From a bacterium HR37 (lineage in GTDB: Bacteria; Desulfobacterota_D; UBA1144; Nemesobacterales; CSP1-2): DNA of 64,000 bases. Below, piece by piece: positions 55,459 through 64,000 of this stretch. Where the stretch lies: NCBI GenBank assembly GCA_002898375.1, contig BEIN01000012.1:3922-67921 (forward strand), read 5' to 3'. Each line of letters opens with the position of its first letter. The stretch's first letter is position 1. A model generated the notes under the pieces. It saw only the letters and a list, made by a program, of their open reading frames with translations. It searched no databases and was not told where the DNA came from. A program made the translations under genes and the position numbers.

Positions 55459-55734
55459 TTACACAACGATTACATCATCTTGTAGTACCCTCTTTACTGT
55501 TCCAAGCCTCTCAATCTTTTGAAGGCATCTGGGACAGAGTTCATAGAAGATTACGCTGTCTTCTTTTTTTATTATCTTCTCAACCTTTCTTTTCATTATA
55601 AGCAGGTTTGTATCACTAAGCCTACATTCAAAGACGCTTAGTTGCACAGGGGTTCCAAAACCCTCAAGGGTTTTAAACAGTTTTAACCTCCTCTTATCAT
55701 CTGTTATGTCGTAGGCAAGAACTATGTTTCTCAT
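55459..55734 (-). CDS. cas2: CRISPR-associated endoribonuclease Cas2
   Basis: 91 aa with the Cas2 pattern (LVLAYDITDDKRR.K..K.L..FG..VQ.SVFEC). It lies directly downstream of the cas4-cas1 fusion gene. Confidence 0.85.
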   Translation of the reverse strand: MRNIVLAYDITDDKRRLKLFKTLEGFGTPVQLSVFECRLSDTNLLIMKRKVEKIIKKEDSVIFYELCPRCLQKIERLGTVKRVLQDDVIVV

Positions 55735-57347
55735 CTAAGTGCAAAGGGTATGTATTCCTCTATCTCTCCCTTTATGAACTTGGCAAGGAGCCTTGCTTGT
55801 ATCTCAAATGCCCTGCGATAGCTTACCCGGTACTCAAAGATAGGATGCAGTATCTCAGATTGAATTTTTCCTATATAGGCCTTAAAGAAGGTTTCTCTAC
55901 CCTTTTCCTGTATGTATATGCCACCGAATCTTTCTTTAAAATCCTCTTTTGTAAACATGTTTCTGTTAAGAACGGATAAAACAAGTGAGTCCACTATTAC
56001 CGGACGAAACTCCTCCATCAGATCAAGTGCAAGGGCTGGTCTTCCATATCTTGTGGAGTGAAGAAAACCAATGTAGGGGTCAAACCCCACGGTGGATACG
56101 GTTGATATAAAATTACCCACAAGAAGACTATATCCGAAGCTAAGAAGGGCATTTACCGGGTCTCTAGGTGGTCGTTTTGTTCTCTTCTCAAAATCAAAGT
56201 CAAGCTTTGGTTTTAATAGCTTTCCAAATACTCTAAAGTAGTCTCTTGTTGCAATCCCTTCAAGACCAAGGAGTTCTTCTTTATCTCCTGCATCGGGTAT
56301 CCTGGTAATAACATTTTTAATCCGAATGCATGCTTCATCTATCTCTCTGTCCCCAAATTCCCTGTTTTGTCTTAGTAGAAGAGTTCGCATGTTAAGTAGC
56401 TTTCCCTTTACAAAGGACTTTGATACCTCTAGGGTAAAATCCCTGTCTATATGTCTTCTGTACTGCTCGATCCTCAAAAGAGAGTTTTTGTTCTCTTCGG
56501 GAACAAATTTACCCTCAAATCTACCGAATGTGGATTGATATACTATATCAACATTAAGCCTTAGGAGGAACTTTAGGGCTTGTGTGGATATGTTTGCGTT
56601 TGCTGATATAATTAACTGCCTAAGATAAGAGGCGGGTATCTCTGTTATAACTTTTCCGTCTTTAGTAACCGTAATCTTCCCTCCTCTCTTACCGATATAA
56701 GCACCGTGTTCGTCCACATAGAGGACTCTTCCGGTGTTGAGTTCGGTTATAATGCGTTTTGGTTTTTCCCCTTTTTCCTTAATAAACCTGGTTTCAAAGG
56801 GAAGGCATACAGAAAGCAGAGAACAACCATGACATCGTGTGTCTGCAACGGGTTCAGGGATCTCACCTCTGTAGAGTATTTCCCTGGCTTTATCTATTGC
56901 CTCAATGGATTTGTTTCTGAGTTCCTGACTAAATTCTACCCTTCTTCTTACCCTAGATGAGTAGTAGTATATGTATCCATATTGAACCGTTTTCCCCACG
57001 TGTTCTTCTAAAAGAAGTGCCTCAAGACAGAGTTGAACATCGTCTGAAAGGCTCTCCTTTAGGTATCCCCTTTTATACTCTATTGGGTAGATTTCTCCGT
57101 CATTTTCAACAGCATCAAGAACCCCAATTATACCAAGCCTTTCAGAAGAGAGGGTTATTTCTTTAACCTGTAGTTTTTCCTGTGTTCTAAGCCTTTCTCT
57201 TTCTTTTCTCTTCTCATCCTTAATGTTTCCTTCCACTACAAATCTGTTTACTGTGTTTTCTCCTTCGCATGCCCGATAGTAAAAGTTTCTTGGACAGAAT
57301 ACAAGCTCTGCAACCAGTGATACCGGTATAAGCTCATCCCACATCAT
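55731..57347 (-). CDS. cas1: Cas4-Cas1 fusion protein
   Basis: N-terminal Cas4/RecB nuclease with one N-proximal Cys (FCPRNF) and a C-x2-C-x5-C cluster (CHGCSLLSVC). The C-terminal ~340 aa form a Cas1 integrase fold (GRVLYVDEHGAYIGKRGGKITV...). Confidence 0.85.
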   Translation of the reverse strand: MMWDELIPVSLVAELVFCPRNFYYRACEGENTVNRFVVEGNIKDEKRKERERLRTQEKLQVKEITLSSERLGIIGVLDAVENDGEIYPIEYKRGYLKESLSDDVQLCLEALLLEEHVGKTVQYGYIYYYSSRVRRRVEFSQELRNKSIEAIDKAREILYRGEIPEPVADTRCHGCSLLSVCLPFETRFIKEKGEKPKRIITELNTGRVLYVDEHGAYIGKRGGKITVTKDGKVITEIPASYLRQLIISANANISTQALKFLLRLNVDIVYQSTFGRFEGKFVPEENKNSLLRIEQYRRHIDRDFTLEVSKSFVKGKLLNMRTLLLRQNREFGDREIDEACIRIKNVITRIPDAGDKEELLGLEGIATRDYFRVFGKLLKPKLDFDFEKRTKRPPRDPVNALLSFGYSLLVGNFISTVSTVGFDPYIGFLHSTRYGRPALALDLMEEFRPVIVDSLVLSVLNRNMFTKEDFKERFGGIYIQEKGRETFFKAYIGKIQSEILHPIFEYRVSYRRAFEIQARLLAKFIKGEIEEYIPFALR

Positions 57348-57958
57348 GACTCTCTGTATGTTCTTTTTACAGAAGGTATTTTTGAGTATCTGCCTTTCTC
57401 AAAGTGAAATAGCTCAATATTGTAGTGTGATAGCCCTATAAGCTGTCCTAACTGAAACCCAAGAACAACTGGCATTGATAGAAACAGTTGAATTTTTGGG
57501 CCCTTGTGTACGGTGTTTATTGTTCTAACAAAGTTCCACACCCTTTTTGCAATTGTGGGAAAAGCGGTTAGTGGTATCTCTTCTACATGGGAGATCAGGT
57601 ATTCTACGGGTCTTTCAAGCTGTATTCTTACGTCTTCTTCAATCTTTCTGGAGAATTCTACAACAAGTGTTATATCGTTTTCCAAAGCAGCTTTTTTAAT
57701 GTAGTTGTTTATCGCCGTTATATCGTTGTTTTGGATGAACTCTTTATAAGCACACATAAGGTCGTTTCCAAGCTCTCCTTTAAGTGATATCAAGGGTAAG
57801 GAGGGTGTTTTATCTCTGGTGTTGGTATCTTTTTTCTGATTCGCCAAGGATAGAGAACCTCTTCTTCTCACTCCTTTATTTACAGCAATCTGTATGACTT
57901 TCCCAAAGATAAGTCCAGAGACGCTTTCCAGTAAGGAGGTTGCAAGTATCTCAATCAT
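57344..57958 (-). CDS. Unassigned cas-locus protein (204 aa), translationally coupled to cas4-cas1
   Basis: Its stop overlaps the cas4-cas1 ATG (ATGA). The first ~26 aa are hydrophobic and the C-terminus carries a Gly/Leu-rich motif (LSMPVVLGFQLGQLIG). No family recognised. Confidence 0.4.
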   Translation of the reverse strand: MIEILATSLLESVSGLIFGKVIQIAVNKGVRRRGSLSLANQKKDTNTRDKTPSLPLISLKGELGNDLMCAYKEFIQNNDITAINNYIKKAALENDITLVVEFSRKIEEDVRIQLERPVEYLISHVEEIPLTAFPTIAKRVWNFVRTINTVHKGPKIQLFLSMPVVLGFQLGQLIGLSHYNIELFHFEKGRYSKIPSVKRTYRES

Positions 57959-58056: not shown

Positions 58057-59139
58057 CTAAGTAAGGACTACAGGCCTTATCTTGCTTCTGTCAATGTGAA
58101 TTCCGTATCTTGTATGGCCATAAACTCTTTTTTGCCCTAATGGGGTTATTTTGTAATATATTGCTATCTTTTTATCATCAAGGGCATTTTCTATAGCCCT
58201 GTTAATCTTACTTATATCCTGGAGTAGATTCTCTGTAGAGAATTTATATCTTCTGAGATCAGCATCTGGTATCATGCTTTTTATATAAGACTTAATATCA
58301 TCCAGGTTGTTTTTTATCGAGTGTGTTCCTTTAAGTGCCTGAAAGCACTCTTCTTCGCTCATGTTAAGTCTTCTCTGTACGAAGTAGGTGTATAGAGCCA
58401 GGAGTTTGGGATTTAGTTTTATTTCCCTATTTCCAATTAGCAATCTCCTATTTTTGAGATCAACTTGAAGGGAGTACAGTGAGGGGCTTATATCTATTTC
58501 CCTCTGGGCTATCTTAACCAGTTCACTGAACGAGAATTTTTCAGAACCAAACAGATTGTCTAGCTTCCCTCTTAACCTTACGTAAGGAATCTCAGCTAGG
58601 TGAATGGGTGCTTTTTCTCTTCTTGATTTTGATGGATAAAAGAAGCTCTTGTTCTGTTCCAGTTTTTCATCTACAAGGACATGTGAGAGAGTATCTTCCT
58701 TTCTTCCAAACAGCATAAGGGCATAGGCAAGGTAGATAGACATTGTTTTTCTTCCTCCTGCAATGGAGCAGTGAAGAATGACATCTGGATCTTTTGTCTT
58801 TTCTTTTATAAACTCTGTAATCTGGTCCGCAACCAGCTCATTATCTTTTACGGTGCGTATATCCTTAAGTGGTTTTCCTTTTGAGTCTTTAAGCAGTATT
58901 ATGGAATCTTCACCAAATTGGATTGATGATGGAGTTATACCATATTCTTTACAGAATGATAAAAGCATCTTTTTGTTGATGAGTTTATCTACAACCTCTT
59001 TTTTCCCGTTTAAAGTTGTTATGACAATGATTCTTGATATTCTGGCAGGAGGTTTCTTTATTTGGGTAAGGTAGTATAGTGTTTCTGTTATAACTTGAGG
59101 ATTAAGTCCAGCAACTGCGACGAGTATTTCCTCTTTCAT
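58057..59139 (-). CDS. CARF-domain protein with C-terminal wHTH-like region (Csa3/Csx1-like sensor, no HEPN motif)
   Basis: N-terminal Rossmann-like CARF motifs (ILVAVAGLNPQVITETLYYL ... ILHCSIAGGRKTMS). The C-terminal stretch (KLNPKLLALYTYFVQRR...) looks like a winged helix. No R-x4-6-H found. Confidence 0.55.
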   Translation of the reverse strand: MKEEILVAVAGLNPQVITETLYYLTQIKKPPARISRIIVITTLNGKKEVVDKLINKKMLLSFCKEYGITPSSIQFGEDSIILLKDSKGKPLKDIRTVKDNELVADQITEFIKEKTKDPDVILHCSIAGGRKTMSIYLAYALMLFGRKEDTLSHVLVDEKLEQNKSFFYPSKSRREKAPIHLAEIPYVRLRGKLDNLFGSEKFSFSELVKIAQREIDISPSLYSLQVDLKNRRLLIGNREIKLNPKLLALYTYFVQRRLNMSEEECFQALKGTHSIKNNLDDIKSYIKSMIPDADLRRYKFSTENLLQDISKINRAIENALDDKKIAIYYKITPLGQKRVYGHTRYGIHIDRSKIRPVVLT

Positions 59140-59465: not shown

Positions 59466-59633
59466 TTAAAGCGTTATTCGTCCTCTCCCAAAAATAAGAG
59501 ATATTACAAATAAGACCAGGAAAAGTATAAATAGAATCTTTGCAATACCTGCTGCGGTGCCTGCAATACCACTGAATCCTAAAACTCCTGCGACCAATGC
59601 TATAATTAAAAAAACTGCTGCCCATCCCAGCAT
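59466..59633 (-). CDS. UPF0391/DUF1328-family small membrane protein (55 aa), not in ORF track
   Basis: ATG with ribosome-binding site GGAGGTAGG. Translation [55 protein letters not shown] matches the conserved YtjA-like pattern (GFSGIAG.A..IAKILF). Confidence 0.55.
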
Positions 59634-59844
59634 TTATCCTACCTCCTTTTTATTACCCGAAAGCGGGTTTAACCCGTTTTATACATAAACCTCTTCCTAT
59701 AGTCTCACGAATAGTTCCTCCTGTCAATAAAAATTTGCTCTCCAATGGGTCTGTGTTTGTTAAAATAAGCTTTTTACCTTAATGAGGACTGTGAATATTT
59801 CCCAAAGGAATTACAACCTGAAGCAAATGTACCCTTTGGTGAGA

Positions 59845-60665
59845 TGTGAAATTCCCTACGGGAATTAGAGGTATTTCTACAAGTGATAATCTCCACTTCC
59901 TACCTCTGGAGACTGCAAAAGGGGCGTTTCAATTCCCTACGGGAATTAGAGGTATTTCTACCTGGTAAGAGACTTTGTGTCTTTTGTTGGTTCTACTACC
60001 ACTCATGTTTCAATTCCCTACGGGAATTAGAGGTATTTCTACGTAGAACTGGTACGTGAGAAAGTAACAATTCCAACGAAGTTTCAATTCCCTACGGGAA
60101 TTAGAGGTATTTCTACCCACGTCATACCTTTGAGGTGGCTCACGATATTATTGTTTCAATTCCCTACGGGAATTAGAGGTATTTCTACAAAGACTGTCAA
60201 CAAACCAGAACCTTCTCCACTCCTTAACAACGAGTTTCAATTCCCTACGGGAATTAGAGGTATTTCTACGAAATACTAACTGTTTCTCTAGTCCGTGTAT
60301 TATCACCAACTTATGACAAGAGTTTCAATTCCCTACGGGAATTAGAGGTATTTCTACGGAACAATAATGCTACCTGTCTGCCTTGACCTTACAAGTTTCA
60401 ATTCCCTACGGGAATTAGAGGTATTTCTACCGTATCACCCTACGGAGAACAATATCCGCTTGCTTGACTGTTTCAATTCCCTACGGGAATTAGAGGTATT
60501 TCTACTAGTCAAAACAAGAGGGCTAACATACGAACAGGCAAGGGAGATCCTGTTTCAATTCCCTACGGGAATTAGAGGTATTTCTACTTGCCTGTCTTGG
60601 TACTAAAGTCAGTGATGATGTATGGAAATGTTTCAATTCCCTACGGGAATTAGAGGTATTTCTAC
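59845..60665 (-). CRISPR. CRISPR array: 11 x 36-nt repeats, consensus on + strand GTTTCAATTCCCTACGGGAATTAGAGGTATTTCTAC, 10 spacers of 36-52 nt
   Basis: Repeat starts are 59845 (degenerate: ATGTGA instead of GTTTCA), 59926, 60007, 60081, 60153, 60234, 60322, 60395, 60470, 60552 and 60630. Spacer lengths are 45, 45, 38, 36, 45, 52, 37, 39, 46 and 42 nt. The internal palindrome is TTCCCTACGGGAA. The strand is inferred: on the minus strand the repeat ends ...ATTGAAAC, the classic Cas6 8-nt handle, and the degenerate repeat is at the low-coordinate (distal) end. Confidence 0.95.
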
Positions 60666-60968
60666 AGCACCCTTATTTTCTCTAATGATTTAAATGAGTT
60701 AGTATGCAGTTTTCGAGAACCTCTAGTTATCAACAACTTATCCACAGGACAATTTTTGTCAATGTTACATAACCCATTTAAATCACTTGATTTTCTAAAT
60801 TCGAGCAACCCCCCACTTTTTTGCATTCCCTCGATGCTCGATGAAAATAATTATCATTATTACCTGATAAATATTAAAAATTAAGTTTTCAAAGAACCGA
60901 TTTCACTGAACAAGTGCTTTAAGCTCAATCTTAGTAAATTTAAAATCCCATGTCAATACTTTTTTATA
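60666..60968 (-). promoter_or_regulatory. Putative CRISPR leader (AT-rich, between csm6-like stop and first repeat)
   Basis: A 303-nt AT-rich non-coding stretch that abuts the intact terminal repeat. It lies downstream of the effector genes in the minus-strand direction. Confidence 0.4.
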
Positions 60969-62090
60969 TTATCCGTTAAAATATGTTTCATTCAGGTCAA
61001 CAAGTGCAGCCTTTAAAGTAACCTTGTTTTGTGAGGGAATCTCCACATTAAACTTTGCGGTTCTTTTTCCATCGCTGAATATAAGCACAATCTTGTTATG
61101 GTTGGGGTCGAATTCGAATCTGTTCCTTTCCGGCAAATCTGGATGTGTGTAGAAATCTCTAATAGTTTTTACGTATCTTTTATCTCTCCATACCTTCTTT
61201 ACAAAAGTTTCTGCTCCAAAGGGTGGCCTGTGATAAAAGTGTTTGGAAAAAGCAGGTTCTTCTTTAACCGGTTGAATGTCTCCAAGCAGGTAGCTCTTTT
61301 CTTTTTTAAACCTGTAGAGAAACATTTCATGAAAGAGTTGGCCAACCGGAGTTAAGGCAACGTGTTTTTCTTGGTTTATTGTTTCCACTTCTATAAGTGT
61401 TTTTAACCTCTCATCTGCCACCAGTTCTTTTACTTCTTCATACGGAGCTATGCTCTTTTTGGAGAGGTTGTCCAGGCTTTCATAATGTAGAAGCCAGAGA
61501 TCAAAATTAAAACTTATAGGCTGGGGAGGAAGTTCTATTATGTCTTCAAATTTTTCAAACATATACATAACCGGTATTTCCAGAGCCTGTCCTATAAGGC
61601 CTGCAAATGAGGTTTGCGCTTTATATCCTCCTGTAGCGTTTATAACAATACGTTCCGTTCCTTTTTCTCTTACGATCTTTGCAATCTCTTTCACAAGATT
61701 TTTAAGTCCTTCAGTTTTAAACTTTTTTACATCGTAGTCTTTAAGGCCTTCTATTACGGTTGCAACTACCCTCTCAAATTTATAGGGGTTCTGAGAATCC
61801 TGATAGTAGTGCTTAAGTATTTCACCTATTTCCCAGCCTTCATCGGTATGAGAGATAAGAAGGTGAAGTTCGTTTCTTTCCGAAAGTTTCCCTTTTTCAA
61901 TGATACTTGTAATGGAGTTTATCTCGGCTCCGCATACTCTATCTCTTGGATTTCGTTTAAGCAGTTCTTTTACAAGGCCTATAATGTTTCCTTTTTTCTC
62001 ATATACTTTTAGAGGCTCTTTATCATCTAGCCGTTCGATGTTGCTAAGCAGGCTTGTCCCCACTGTGCAAATCAGTGTATCACGCCTCAT
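60969..62090 (-). CDS. CARF-HEPN protein, Csm6/Csx1-like (putative cOA-activated RNase)
   Basis: N-terminal CARF motifs (LICTVGTSLL ... INATGGYKAQT) and a C-terminal R-x4-H motif (IRDFYTH). Its start overlaps the cas6 stop (ATGA). Confidence 0.6.
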   Translation of the reverse strand: MRRDTLICTVGTSLLSNIERLDDKEPLKVYEKKGNIIGLVKELLKRNPRDRVCGAEINSITSIIEKGKLSERNELHLLISHTDEGWEIGEILKHYYQDSQNPYKFERVVATVIEGLKDYDVKKFKTEGLKNLVKEIAKIVREKGTERIVINATGGYKAQTSFAGLIGQALEIPVMYMFEKFEDIIELPPQPISFNFDLWLLHYESLDNLSKKSIAPYEEVKELVADERLKTLIEVETINQEKHVALTPVGQLFHEMFLYRFKKEKSYLLGDIQPVKEEPAFSKHFYHRPPFGAETFVKKVWRDKRYVKTIRDFYTHPDLPERNRFEFDPNHNKIVLIFSDGKRTAKFNVEIPSQNKVTLKAALVDLNETYFNG

Positions 62091-62896
62091 TGCTTTACCC
62101 TTACTGCTTGTCCCATTCCCATTGTGGTTTTATATCCTATCCCTGAGTAAAAAGCAAAATCGGCAAGGGTATTTAAAATCTTTTTTTCTTTCCGGACAAA
62201 TTCTTTTCCCAGTCTGTATTCTAGTATACCTTTAAACCCTATAACCTTGTAATTTGAGAAAGTTACAATCTCGCTTTTTAACTCAAACTGTGATGGATAG
62301 ATTGTGTTTAGTTTCTCTGTAAAGCTTTTGTCAAAGGTTATACCTGAAAATGAGTTCCATCTATCAATCAGAGAGCCAAAGATGAGGTAGGCTTCGGGTA
62401 ATGTACACTGCTTTCCCCTGATTCTGAAAGAAGTGGGTGAGAAAAACTTAAGTCGTATTTTGTCATCTGGTTGTGCTTCCTCAAACAGTTTGGGGTAGAG
62501 GGATGACCTTACCCAAAGATTTGAACTTTCCTTATAGTGTATGTTATTAAGAAGTATCTTTCCGTTTCCCAGTGTAAGGCTGGTTTTAAGGTTTAGGGCT
62601 TTCCCAAATGCAGCAAGGGTGTCAGGAAGAAGTTTTTCTTCCAGTATGGATATTCTAAAGGAGGCCTTTTCCCCACCTTCCAGTATTATTTTCCCTTCGG
62701 TTTTTGGTTTTTTCTCAAGAATGCCGGATAGTGAAAATGGTTTTTGTCTATTGCTTCCATTGTGGAGGTACTCTGCCACTTTTTTGGAGTAATTTTTTAA
62801 GACCTCAAAGAAAAGCCCGTGTATTGCTTCTCCCCCATAGCCATTTAGGACTATAGCCTCTAGGGTTTCAAACTCGATAACAAAGCTTGAGAGCAT
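62087..62896 (-). CDS. cas6: CRISPR repeat endoribonuclease Cas6
   Basis: C-terminal glycine-rich loop GIGYKTTMGMG (GhGxxxxxGhG) and a ferredoxin-like N-terminus. Its start overlaps the upstream RAMP stop (TAATG). Confidence 0.85.
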   Translation of the reverse strand: MLSSFVIEFETLEAIVLNGYGGEAIHGLFFEVLKNYSKKVAEYLHNGSNRQKPFSLSGILEKKPKTEGKIILEGGEKASFRISILEEKLLPDTLAAFGKALNLKTSLTLGNGKILLNNIHYKESSNLWVRSSLYPKLFEEAQPDDKIRLKFFSPTSFRIRGKQCTLPEAYLIFGSLIDRWNSFSGITFDKSFTEKLNTIYPSQFELKSEIVTFSNYKVIGFKGILEYRLGKEFVRKEKKILNTLADFAFYSGIGYKTTMGMGQAVRVKQ

Positions 62897-64000
62897 TACT
62901 CGACCTCTATTCTGATCCAGCCAAGTGTTAATTCTTCTTTTGTTGCTGGATTTATTACAACTTTTCTGGTTTTTGGAAAGTTACTTGTATTTATTCTTCT
63001 ACCTGTGGTTTTAAGAAGTTCAACGTAGTTTCTATAGGTTTCATCTCCCAGGTGTTTTATAAGTTTTGCAAGTGTTATGCTTATAAAACCTTGATGTTTT
63101 CCAATCCTTATTACTGGGGCATTTTCGCTATTGGTCCTTTTTATGTTCTCAAGCTGGCTTATTGCACTGTATACCTTTAACTTTCTGTAAAAATCAAGTT
63201 CCTCTTCAATGATTTCCTTAGACATTTCATAACATGCTTTAAGTACCTGATCAAGATTGCCAAAAAAAGATTTTTTCTGAATATCTGTACCAAAGTGATT
63301 TGCAAAATCTTCGAACTGTTTTCCTTGTATAATTCCAATTTCTCCTTGAAACTCGGTATTACTTGAAATAATTTCGTGAAATTCCCCTGTGATTCGGGAA
63401 CTGTTTTTAATTTGTATCTTTGCTATTATTCTTTCCGCATTTTTAGAATAAGCATCGGATACAAGTATAAACTTTAAAAAATCAAATTTGGCATCATTTC
63501 TAAGCCTTAGAACTTTTTGAGAGATTTTCTCCTCTAATTTTTTCAATTCTTCTCTAACTTCTTTTCTATTGCCTAGGGACTTTCTTTTAATTTTATTTAT
63601 CTCATTGGAAAGGAAGCTGGTTAAGGAGCTATCAAGAATTAACTTCCTAAGAATAGCTGTTCTTAGTGCCCCTTTAATCTCAGTACCCGGTATGTAAGGT
63701 TGGTTTCTTGATTTGATAAGTGTCCAGATTTTTTGAGGAGTTTCACTGCCCCATAAAGGCAGTGAAGAAGAAGCTCTTTTAGAGGCGAACTTTAATATTT
63801 TCTCAGTATTGCTATATGTTTCAAAAAAACCCAGAAGACTGGGTGATTCGCTGTTGGTGACGTATTGAATAAAATCCTCAAGTTGGTCTTTTGTTAGGAA
63901 TCTCTTTAGCTGTTCGGAGTTAAACAAATGGATTTTTCTGTTATAGTAGAAGTATTCTAAATTGCTTAAGGTGTTTCCATCACCTATATGGATTGGGGAA
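62896..64000 (-). CDS. Type III RAMP protein, Csm5-like (Cas7 group), 5' end beyond window
   Basis: Contains the RAMP motif YIPGTEIKGALRTAIL. The ORF-track start at 63927 is a TTG, and the frame stays open upstream to the window edge (...SPIHIGDGNTLSNLEYFYYNRKIH-L-FNSEQ...). Confidence 0.6.
   Translation of the reverse strand, partial: SPIHIGDGNTLSNLEYFYYNRKIHLFNSEQLKRFLTKDQLEDFIQYVTNSESPSLLGFFETYSNTEKILKFASKRASSSLPLWGSETPQKIWTLIKSRNQPYIPGTEIKGALRTAILRKLILDSSLTSFLSNEINKIKRKSLGNRKEVREELKKLEEKISQKVLRLRNDAKFDFLKFILVSDAYSKNAERIIAKIQIKNSSRITGEFHEIISSNTEFQGEIGIIQGKQFEDFANHFGTDIQKKSFFGNLDQVLKACYEMSKEIIEEELDFYRKLKVYSAISQLENIKRTNSENAPVIRIGKHQGFISITLAKLIKHLGDETYRNYVELLKTTGRRINTSNFPKTRKVVINPATKEELTLGWIRIEVE

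Follow-up and report, generated by a model that had tools for sequence, protein, structure and literature searches.

Within a 64,000-nucleotide stretch of DNA from bacterium HR37 (GenBank assembly GCA_002898375.1, contig BEIN01000012.1, positions 3,922 to 67,921; the whole stretch is referred to here as the window), a 204-amino-acid gene lies in a type III CRISPR-Cas locus. We call its product half-SAVED. Residues ~94–200 form a single CARF-like lobe of a SAVED domain from the SAVED4 (CalpL/AcrIII-2) clade, amounting to half of the customary sensor, in which two lobes are fused, and we estimate the probability that half-SAVED is a single-lobe SAVED4 sensor of the cyclic oligoadenylate (cOA) pathway at about 0.9. 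SAVED domains have been described as two CARF-like lobes fused in one chain, and the fusion is thought to permit asymmetric ligands and polymerising monomers. Because a defence-system library already holds a profile of this family, the gene cannot be called categorically new. Half-SAVED is a conserved ancillary protein of the type III locus.

The family assignment comes from two profile matches. Residues 95–202 match the PADLOC profile PDLC02008 ('SAVED4--SAVED') along its full length (profile positions 2–104 of 104; E = 3.7e-40, 134.9 bits), the class name SAVED4 being taken from PADLOC profile labels alone. The Pfam SAVED profile (PF18145) is matched above its gathering cut-off (28.2 bits, cut-off 26.2; E = 1.9e-6). 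We therefore reject the reading of a preliminary description of this DNA, which had recognised no family in the gene and considered it undescribed. The Pfam match covers profile positions 75–185 of 190, the C-terminal half, and the match to the NCBIfam SAVED model NF033611 stays under its cut-off (30.8 bits, cut-off 33); at the sequence level the SAVED match is borderline because just half of the profile is covered. Weaker PADLOC matches were obtained with 'SAVED4--SAVED_TM' (PDLC02011, E = 4.7e-10, SAVED part alone covered), '1TM effector' and CRISPR-Lon profiles, the last of these over half-SAVED residues 128–201 only. No CARF profile was matched; the sole PADLOC hit with a 'CARF' label (PDLC01159, E = 3.3e-4) is a Lon-protease-fused model of the CalpL type. 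Family proteins are annotated in databases as 'hypothetical protein' or 'SAVED domain-containing protein', and a search of the available literature for SAVED proteins of half size, mini size or a single lobe yielded no relevant paper.

The AlphaFold2 (AF2) model of half-SAVED shows a compact, confident domain (predicted local distance difference test score [pLDDT], 84; predicted template modelling score [pTM], 0.79). When this model was used in a Foldseek search, the top matches were Cap14 and 3TM-SAVED filament structures. Among solved structures, the SAVED ring nuclease AcrIII-2 (PDB 9r8s) comes closest, and the fold of the lobe is nearer to SAVED than to classical CARF. Each structural match spans about 105–127 residues, which is one lobe. 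Consistently, the family profile matches the two lobes of 9r8s separately (residues 44–101, 27.9 bits; residues 164–233, 30.4 bits), and PDLC02008 matches a tandem relative, P0020, twice, from which we conclude that this profile models one lobe. The fused two-lobe pseudo-dimer, one of the defining features of SAVED, is absent from half-SAVED. A second lobe hidden in residues 58–93 was considered and rejected, the 36-residue hairpin that AF2 places there being too short.

The chain begins with a conserved, marginally hydrophobic N-terminal helix of low pLDDT (residues 1–26; 57881..57958; this and the following segments are on the minus strand). It is followed by a poorly conserved linker that is predicted to be disordered, starts with NKGVRRRG and has a net charge of +6 (residues 27–57; 57788..57880), by a helical hairpin with a short strand, seen in alignments and in the AF2 model (residues 58–93, GxLGxxLxxAY...; 57680..57787; pLDDT 85–95), and by the SAVED lobe (residues 94–204; 57347..57679). 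The hairpin is specific to a 'long-form' subfamily of ~190–205 residues and is missing from 'minis' of 107–165 residues. The lobe is laid out as strand b1 (95–101), helix (107–114), strand (120–123), helix (130–150), strand (155–161), helix (164–177) and two strands (181–187 and 190–194); its conserved residues are E101, S103-R104, S161-x-P163, G171-Q172, G175, G189, Y191, P195 and R199. The C-terminal segment LSMPVVLGFQLGQLIG, which had been singled out as a motif, is not a special one: it turned out to be the strand-helix buried in the core of the SAVED/CARF fold, and it aligns with FSCPVPIAFMVGVAFG of AcrIII-2 and FSAPVAIMLALGMALG of CalpL. A transmembrane (TM) segment at this site was rejected on the basis of the alignments and the AF2 model; the equivalent elements of CalpL have been falsely predicted as TM helices (bioRxiv 10.1101/2021.12.06.471393).

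The open reading frame (ORF) occupies 57344..57958 of the minus strand, a strand that the preliminary description had left out. It runs from an ATG at 57958 to a TGA ending at 57344 and encodes the 204 residues claimed; both strings quoted in that description are present in the translation (MIEILATSLLESVSGLIFGKVIQIAV, residues 1–26; LSMPVVLGFQLGQLIG, residues 160–175). The identical protein is on deposit as GBD39328.1 ('hypothetical protein HRbin37_01603 [bacterium HR37]'), and orthologues of equal length and 48–96% identity (E 1e-50 to 1e-120) were found in Dadabacteria- and Thermodesulfobacteriota-like metagenome-assembled genomes (MAGs). Given the deposited protein and the same-length orthologues, the gene is real and not a chance ORF. 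The orthologue alignment shows invariant core positions and a variable linker, and length, start and architecture are kept down to ~50% identity. This pattern bears on a further explanation, in which the gene would be a decaying, functionless remnant of a CalpL-like Lon-SAVED gene. Such an origin would fit the match to just the C-terminal half of the SAVED profile and the presence of CalpL-like proteins among the weak family hits, but it is effectively refuted by the conservation pattern, and the compact AF2 model and the recurrence of the same single-lobe core in 47 representatives across bacteria, archaea and a virus also speak against it. We regard a remnant as scarcely credible.

Upstream of half-SAVED lies the gene of a 360-residue CARF protein of the Cas_NE0113/CARF5 family (NE0113; 58057..59139, minus strand), its invariant upstream neighbour in orthologous loci. 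Downstream are a Cas4-Cas1 fusion gene (55731..57347, minus strand; NCBIfam cas4g_cas1g, 601 bits) and cas2 (55459..55734, minus strand). The location between a CARF gene and cas4-cas1 was thus described correctly, and it is not particular to the window: the order NE0113, half-SAVED, cas4(/)cas1, cas2 is kept in type III loci of all five lineages surveyed (L001, L004, L007, L009 and L011), and the outer flanks vary between them (HicAB, UbiA or M16 peptidase). Together, the SAVED-type sensor fold and the CARF and cas4/cas1 flanks in each of these lineages bear out the suggested link to the cOA pathway. A gene for Csm6 (6H-HEPN) lies directly upstream of NE0113 in L004, L007 and L009 and one gene further up in L001. 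This Csm6 (6H+HEPN) gene of the sister loci is missing from the window. One or two MazE-PIN toxin-antitoxin pairs were seen between the CARF7/cas6 and Csm6 genes, within the type III locus, in L001 and L004–L006, and in L009 an extra 132-residue ORF with no Pfam match stands between NE0113 and the half-SAVED gene.

The stop codon of the half-SAVED gene (TGA, 57346–57344) shares four nucleotides, ATGA (57344..57347, minus strand), with the first ATG of cas4-cas1 (57347–57345), as had been stated; the junction reads ...TCATGATGTGG... on the minus strand. A second in-frame ATG of cas4-cas1, which is the called start in L011–L013, would give an overlap of one nucleotide instead. The overlap is confined to the lineage of the window, other lineages having gaps of 3, 25, 41 and 124 nucleotides; the translational coupling deduced earlier from it is not a conserved property. 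No terminator-like site was found between NE0113, half-SAVED and cas4-cas1 on the minus strand, which makes co-transcription plausible; the promoter and terminator scan was otherwise uninformative.

An exhaustive hidden Markov model search of 1.84 billion representatives returned only 47 at E ≤ 1e-3 (representatives at 50% identity) with the same single-lobe core, from bacteria, archaea and a virus. The family comprises long forms of about 190–205 residues, including the window protein; minis of 107–165 residues with the lobe alone, most having an N-terminal amphipathic or hydrophobic helix and then a K/R cluster; minis with genuine TM segments (P0047–49 and P0064); one tandem duplication, P0020; and weak matches to CalpL-like Lon-SAVED proteins of roughly 470 residues. 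P0020 (290 residues) consists of a hydrophobic helix, a KKK cluster, a lobe, a basic linker and a second lobe, and has the appearance of a two-lobe TM-SAVED created anew out of the single-lobe module. The long-form subfamily of the window gene is specifically type III-linked, whereas distant members are not always linked to cas genes.

The neighbourhoods of these distant members differ widely. The long form P0021 lies in a MazE-PIN/PLD/STAND island. TM-minis directly follow a DUF4145 gene in two loci (L016, 8946–10477; L017, 8893–10480); the partner has ~350 residues, with DUF4145 at its C terminus and 240 N-terminal residues without assignment. The two genes overlap by 4 nucleotides in L016, which is beside a type III locus with DarT-Macro in a Sulfurimonas MAG, and are separated by 40 nucleotides in L017, which is in a restriction-modification/defence island; a gene for a 316-residue WCX-domain protein is near the module in both. 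Helix-less minis of 107–146 residues in archaeal MAGs and metagenome contigs (L020–L022, L030 and L035–L037) sit in an operon that encodes an unknown protein of 250–414 residues, the mini-SAVED, a bpMoxR AAA+ ATPase (PF20030), a vWA-like protein of ~428 residues and a KH-domain protein. No cas genes were seen in these archaeal operons, and their composition suggests that a MoxR-vWA conflict system includes a step of nucleotide sensing. Searches for related loci with narrower family alignments mostly yielded such archaeal minis rather than additional long forms on long contigs. A viral contig (IMG/VR UViG_3300014914_000024; L025, 7893–8321) encodes a 142-residue single-lobe SAVED4 mini, with a gene for the large terminase subunit about 3 kb away, and a BFVD fold search gave weaker matches to uncharacterised phage and archaeal-virus proteins of 123–132 residues. 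By analogy with AcrIII-2, these viral proteins could be cOA sponges or ring nucleases. For the long form itself, a viral origin or an anti-CRISPR role found no support, and no relative of it was on a viral contig. From the variety of neighbourhoods we conclude that the lobe is a mobile sensor module of conflict systems.

The conserved gene order could be read in another way, with half-SAVED as a cOA-responsive adaptor: on sensing cyclic tetra-adenylate (cA4), it would bind NE0113 or Cas4-Cas1 through its N-terminal helix or hairpin and so link type III interference signalling with the acquisition of spacers or with operon regulation. The conserved helix and hairpin are without an assigned partner. 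Such an adaptor would account for the position directly between NE0113 and cas4/cas1-cas2 in all five close-subfamily lineages despite their differing outer flanks, for the stop/start overlap in the window and for the lack of terminator-like sites among the three minus-strand genes. Set against this, the ATGA overlap is not conserved, the P0021 island, the DUF4145-linked TM-minis and the archaeal MoxR operons have no link to cas1, and the synteny may reflect one cassette inherited among related organisms (Dadabacteria- and Thermodesulfobacteriota-like MAGs). We consider an adaptor function unlikely. The sharper form of the idea, based on synteny, in which half-SAVED would be a cA4 receptor that physically couples type III signalling to Cas4-Cas1-Cas2 or NE0113 and thereby gates adaptation, appears more doubtful still; were it true, spacer acquisition would be switched on only in cells whose Cas10 had just detected an invader.

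In the N-terminal helix, residues 1–26 follow the conserved pattern MIE..SLIES.T.L.LGK.I.IA, contain the small-xxx-small motif G15xxxG19 and bear E3/T7/E11/S14 as a polar stripe; the mean Eisenberg hydrophobicity H is 0.54, the hydrophobic moment is low and there is almost no helical amphipathicity. A position-weighted scan of the apparent free energy of membrane insertion (dG_app), made with a re-implemented scale that was checked only on controls (poly-Leu, −7.5; Lep H1, −1.8; glycophorin, −2.3; melittin, +3.1), gave +2.9 kcal/mol for the helix and +1.1 to +3.6 for its orthologues. For comparison, a soluble SAVED core segment scored +2.0 and TM-bearing relatives −0.8 to −3.4. In this respect the helix resembles melittin and the soluble core segment, unlike true TM relatives. 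The hydrophobic N terminus noted earlier is thus real and conserved, but a confident TM helix or classical signal-anchor is not supported by the scan; we retain a putative membrane-active or peripheral helix. Peptides that act on membranes or are targeted to them have the design seen here, with a polybasic cluster directly behind a hydrophobic helix. Of the bacterial-type family members examined, most have an N-terminal helix, hydrophobic or amphipathic, and a K/R cluster after it, and genuine TM segments are found in P0047–49, P0064 and P0020.

The residues that act in the nearest characterised relatives can be traced in half-SAVED in part. In AcrIII-2 and CalpL, one SAVED holds cA4 in its pocket, and the following SAVED covers the ligand with its opposite face; a His that follows strand b1 of lobe 2 is required for catalysis (AcrIII-2 H128; CcaCalpL S395/H396), and basic residues after lobe 1 are required for stacking into filaments (AcrIII-2 R96/K99; CalpL R358/K361) (PMC12751052; bioRxiv 10.1101/2024.05.08.593097). 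The Ser of the LSxP motif, AcrIII-2 S194, also contributes (PMC12751052). We established equivalences, which fall in loop regions, from HMMER and L-INS-i alignments without superposed coordinates. The conserved S161 aligns with AcrIII-2 S194 (chain S201). R199, near-invariant across the whole family, lies with K198 and R202 in 'IPSVK198R199TYR202', to be compared with 'IPITNVR103ALK106' of AcrIII-2, where it is one residue out of register; this region approximates AcrIII-2 R96/K99 and CalpL R358/K361. There is no His in the b1 loop of half-SAVED (VVEFSRKIEEDV; VVEFS103-R104-KIEEDV), and in the L-INS-i alignment the 'SH' dyad of CalpL falls on the near-invariant R104 and a gap, Ser103-Arg104 standing where SAVED4 ring nucleases have the catalytic His. 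Judged by these alignments, the ligand contact and the stacking face look preserved and the His-based ring-nuclease centre does not. With Ser103-Arg104 in place of the Ser-His centre, signal cleavage of the His type has probably been lost. The CcaCalpL H396A variant still binds cA4 and is still activated by it (bioRxiv 10.1101/2024.05.08.593097), and loss of the His is therefore compatible with a pure sensor. The long forms have in addition a near-invariant N148/H151 pair on the helix equivalent to that carrying AcrIII-2 Q178.

These residues also bear on a possible role of half-SAVED as a stand-alone, His-independent ring nuclease or as a cA4 sink or sponge, whose dimers or stacks would bind, degrade or sequester cA4 and so set the threshold and duration of CARF-effector signalling, as do cellular Crn enzymes and viral AcrIII-2. 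AcrIII-2, the closest solved structure, is a ring nuclease, and so is the SAVED4 domain of CalpL (bioRxiv 10.1101/2024.05.08.593097); the counterparts of AcrIII-2 S194 (S161) and, approximately, R96 (R199) are conserved, as is the N148/H151 pair of the long forms; half-SAVED has no recognisable enzymatic effector domain; and the locus contains a nuclease-type CARF effector that would need to be switched off. The proposal is weakened by the absence of the catalytic His of the nearest characterised relatives (AcrIII-2 H128, CcaCalpL H396), with a near-invariant Arg at or beside its place. Moreover, a soluble enzyme would leave the conserved N-terminal helix and polybasic linker unexplained, and the locus already has two CARF families, CARF7 and CARF5/NE0113, that NCBIfam names as ring-nuclease families. 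We see this role as a possibility to be kept in mind, at clearly less than even odds.

The mechanism that we prefer for the single-lobe sensor, and propose tentatively as somewhat short of an even chance, is that of a homodimeric cA4 sensor in which ligand-driven stacking clusters membrane-active helices. Two chains would pair via the strand-helix LSMPVVLGFQLGQLIG (helix 164–177) and create a two-fold symmetric, CARF-like pocket. This pocket would bind the product of Cas10, most likely cA4, which is what the nearest characterised relatives bind. A second dimer would then close over the bound ligand with its opposite, R199-bearing face, an arrangement like that of CalpL, AcrIII-2 and Cap14, and ligand binding would in this way drive head-to-tail stacking. 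Stacking, in turn, may concentrate the modules of hydrophobic helix and polybasic cluster, which are melittin-like, at the inner face of the membrane, and the membrane would be perturbed or depolarised and the infected cell arrested. The recurrent helix with its K/R cluster, the TM-bearing relatives and the PADLOC matches to 'SAVED4--SAVED_TM' and '1TM effector' agree with a membrane role, for which Cap14 (PMC13434031), Cam1 (PMC11229360), Csx23 (PMC11014256) and Cap1 (PMC12642688) offer precedents as membrane effectors driven by a ligand. Several points weigh against this proposal. The helix is no confident TM segment (dG_app +2.9) and contains E3, E11 and K20, and AF2 confidence is low for residues 1–55. 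The residue equivalences, drawn from sequence and located in loops, are likely rather than proven, and we infer both homodimerisation and stacking. The archaeal relatives in MoxR-vWA-KH operons lack the helix, which indicates that the lobe alone is the sensor module and implies no membrane role. Finally, cas10 lies beyond the end of the window (64000), its cyclase motif is outside the view, and cA4 is the presumed ligand.

The remainder of the locus extends to the far end of the window. NE0113 belongs to a family that NCBIfam names 'ring nuclease Csm6' (TIGR02584); its residues ~210–360 gave no Pfam or PDB-sequence match, and the 'wHTH' (winged helix-turn-helix) label that it had been given could not be confirmed. 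The Cas4-Cas1 fusion is of a kind named for subtype I-G and here adjoins a Csm-type (type III) effector module. Between NE0113 and the CRISPR array lies the gene of a 55-residue DUF1328 small membrane protein (59466..59633, minus strand); a 55-residue gene is also called at this position in L011–L013. The array (59843..60675) has 11 copies of the 36-nucleotide repeat GTTTCAATTCCCTACGGGAATTAGAGGTATTTCTAC, spaced 72–88 nucleotides start to start, and the last copy towards 59.8 kb is degenerate (GTGAAATTCCC...), an indication that the leader is on the 60.7-kb side. Beyond it are the genes for a 373-residue CARF7 (Cas_APE2256) protein with a DUF2103/RelE-like C-terminal region (60969..62090, minus strand), for Cas6 (62087..62896, minus strand) and for Csm5 (62896..63927, minus strand), the last two forming the edge of a type III effector module that continues beyond the window. 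The array lies 1.9 kb from the half-SAVED gene, and the genes for CARF7, Cas6 and Csm5 lie 3 kb from it. The CARF7 protein matches PADLOC 'CARF7--CARF_DUF2103' over its full length (E = 6e-115) and 'CARF_RelE' profiles over residues 4–275; it is likely the nuclease-type effector of the locus, and may resemble Cami1, as an mRNA nuclease activated by cA4, and be the main effector here.

Half-SAVED leaves the general picture of type III CRISPR signalling unchanged. Its interest lies in the series that natural single-lobe SAVED4 proteins form with their tandem, TM-anchored, archaeal MoxR-linked and virus-borne relatives, a series in which the interconversion of CARF homodimers and SAVED pseudo-dimers can be studied. 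If half-SAVED exerts its effect by way of the N-terminal helix, it would rank with the smallest effectors triggered by cOA, half a sensor domain joined to a melittin-like peptide, and would make an attractive minimal, thermostable cA4-responsive module. As a His-less ring nuclease or sponge, it would represent another way of tuning type III signalling.

Among known systems, AcrIII-2 (PDB 9r8s; PMC12751052) is likewise a stand-alone protein of the SAVED4 type with no enzymatic fusion partner, and has in common with half-SAVED both the 'LSxP' Ser of the pocket and one or more basic residues behind the last strand. However, AcrIII-2 has two fused lobes in about 240 residues, and its essential His128 is without counterpart in half-SAVED, which has Ser-Arg. 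In addition, AcrIII-2 is viral and soluble, whereas half-SAVED is chromosomal and cas-linked and carries a hydrophobic helix, a basic linker and a hairpin. The type III Lon-SAVED protease CalpL (PDB 7qda, 8b0r and 9eyi) belongs to the same SAVED4 clade by PADLOC profiles and sequence, and it too has a core strand-helix hydrophobic enough to pass for a TM segment. CalpL senses cA4 and, with the ligand sandwiched between SAVED faces, assembles into filaments. Unlike CalpL, half-SAVED has no Lon match, no CalpT or CalpS partner genes in its locus, a single lobe and no Ser-His ring-nuclease dyad.

The TM-SAVED effectors (Cap14 and 3TM-SAVED filaments of CBASS, antiphage signalling systems based on cyclic oligonucleotides; PDB 9om7 and 9wq3) also combine an N-terminal membrane element with a SAVED sensor, and ligand-induced filaments cluster their membrane-active part (PMC13434031). 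They differ in having two or three TM helices where half-SAVED has one helix, marginally hydrophobic (dG_app +2.9) and of putative membrane insertion, and in having two lobes, not one, and a CBASS and not a CRISPR context. In Csx23 (PMC11014256), Cam1 (PMC11229360) and Cap1 (PMC12642688), small ancillary type III effectors that respond to cA4 and are anchored in the membrane, an N-terminal membrane element is joined to a cytoplasmic cOA-binding domain, and the proteins oligomerise and depolarise the membrane. Their likeness to half-SAVED is a working analogy only: they sense with other folds (Csx23 with a novel one, Cam1 with CARF and Cap1 with a CARF-like fold), and no sequence or profile relationship of half-SAVED to these three proteins was found. 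Homodimeric CARF sensors and ring nucleases differ from half-SAVED at the level of profiles, none of theirs being matched by it, but they resemble it in their building plan: their single Rossmann-like lobe must pair to form a two-fold pocket, and the same would be expected of half-SAVED.

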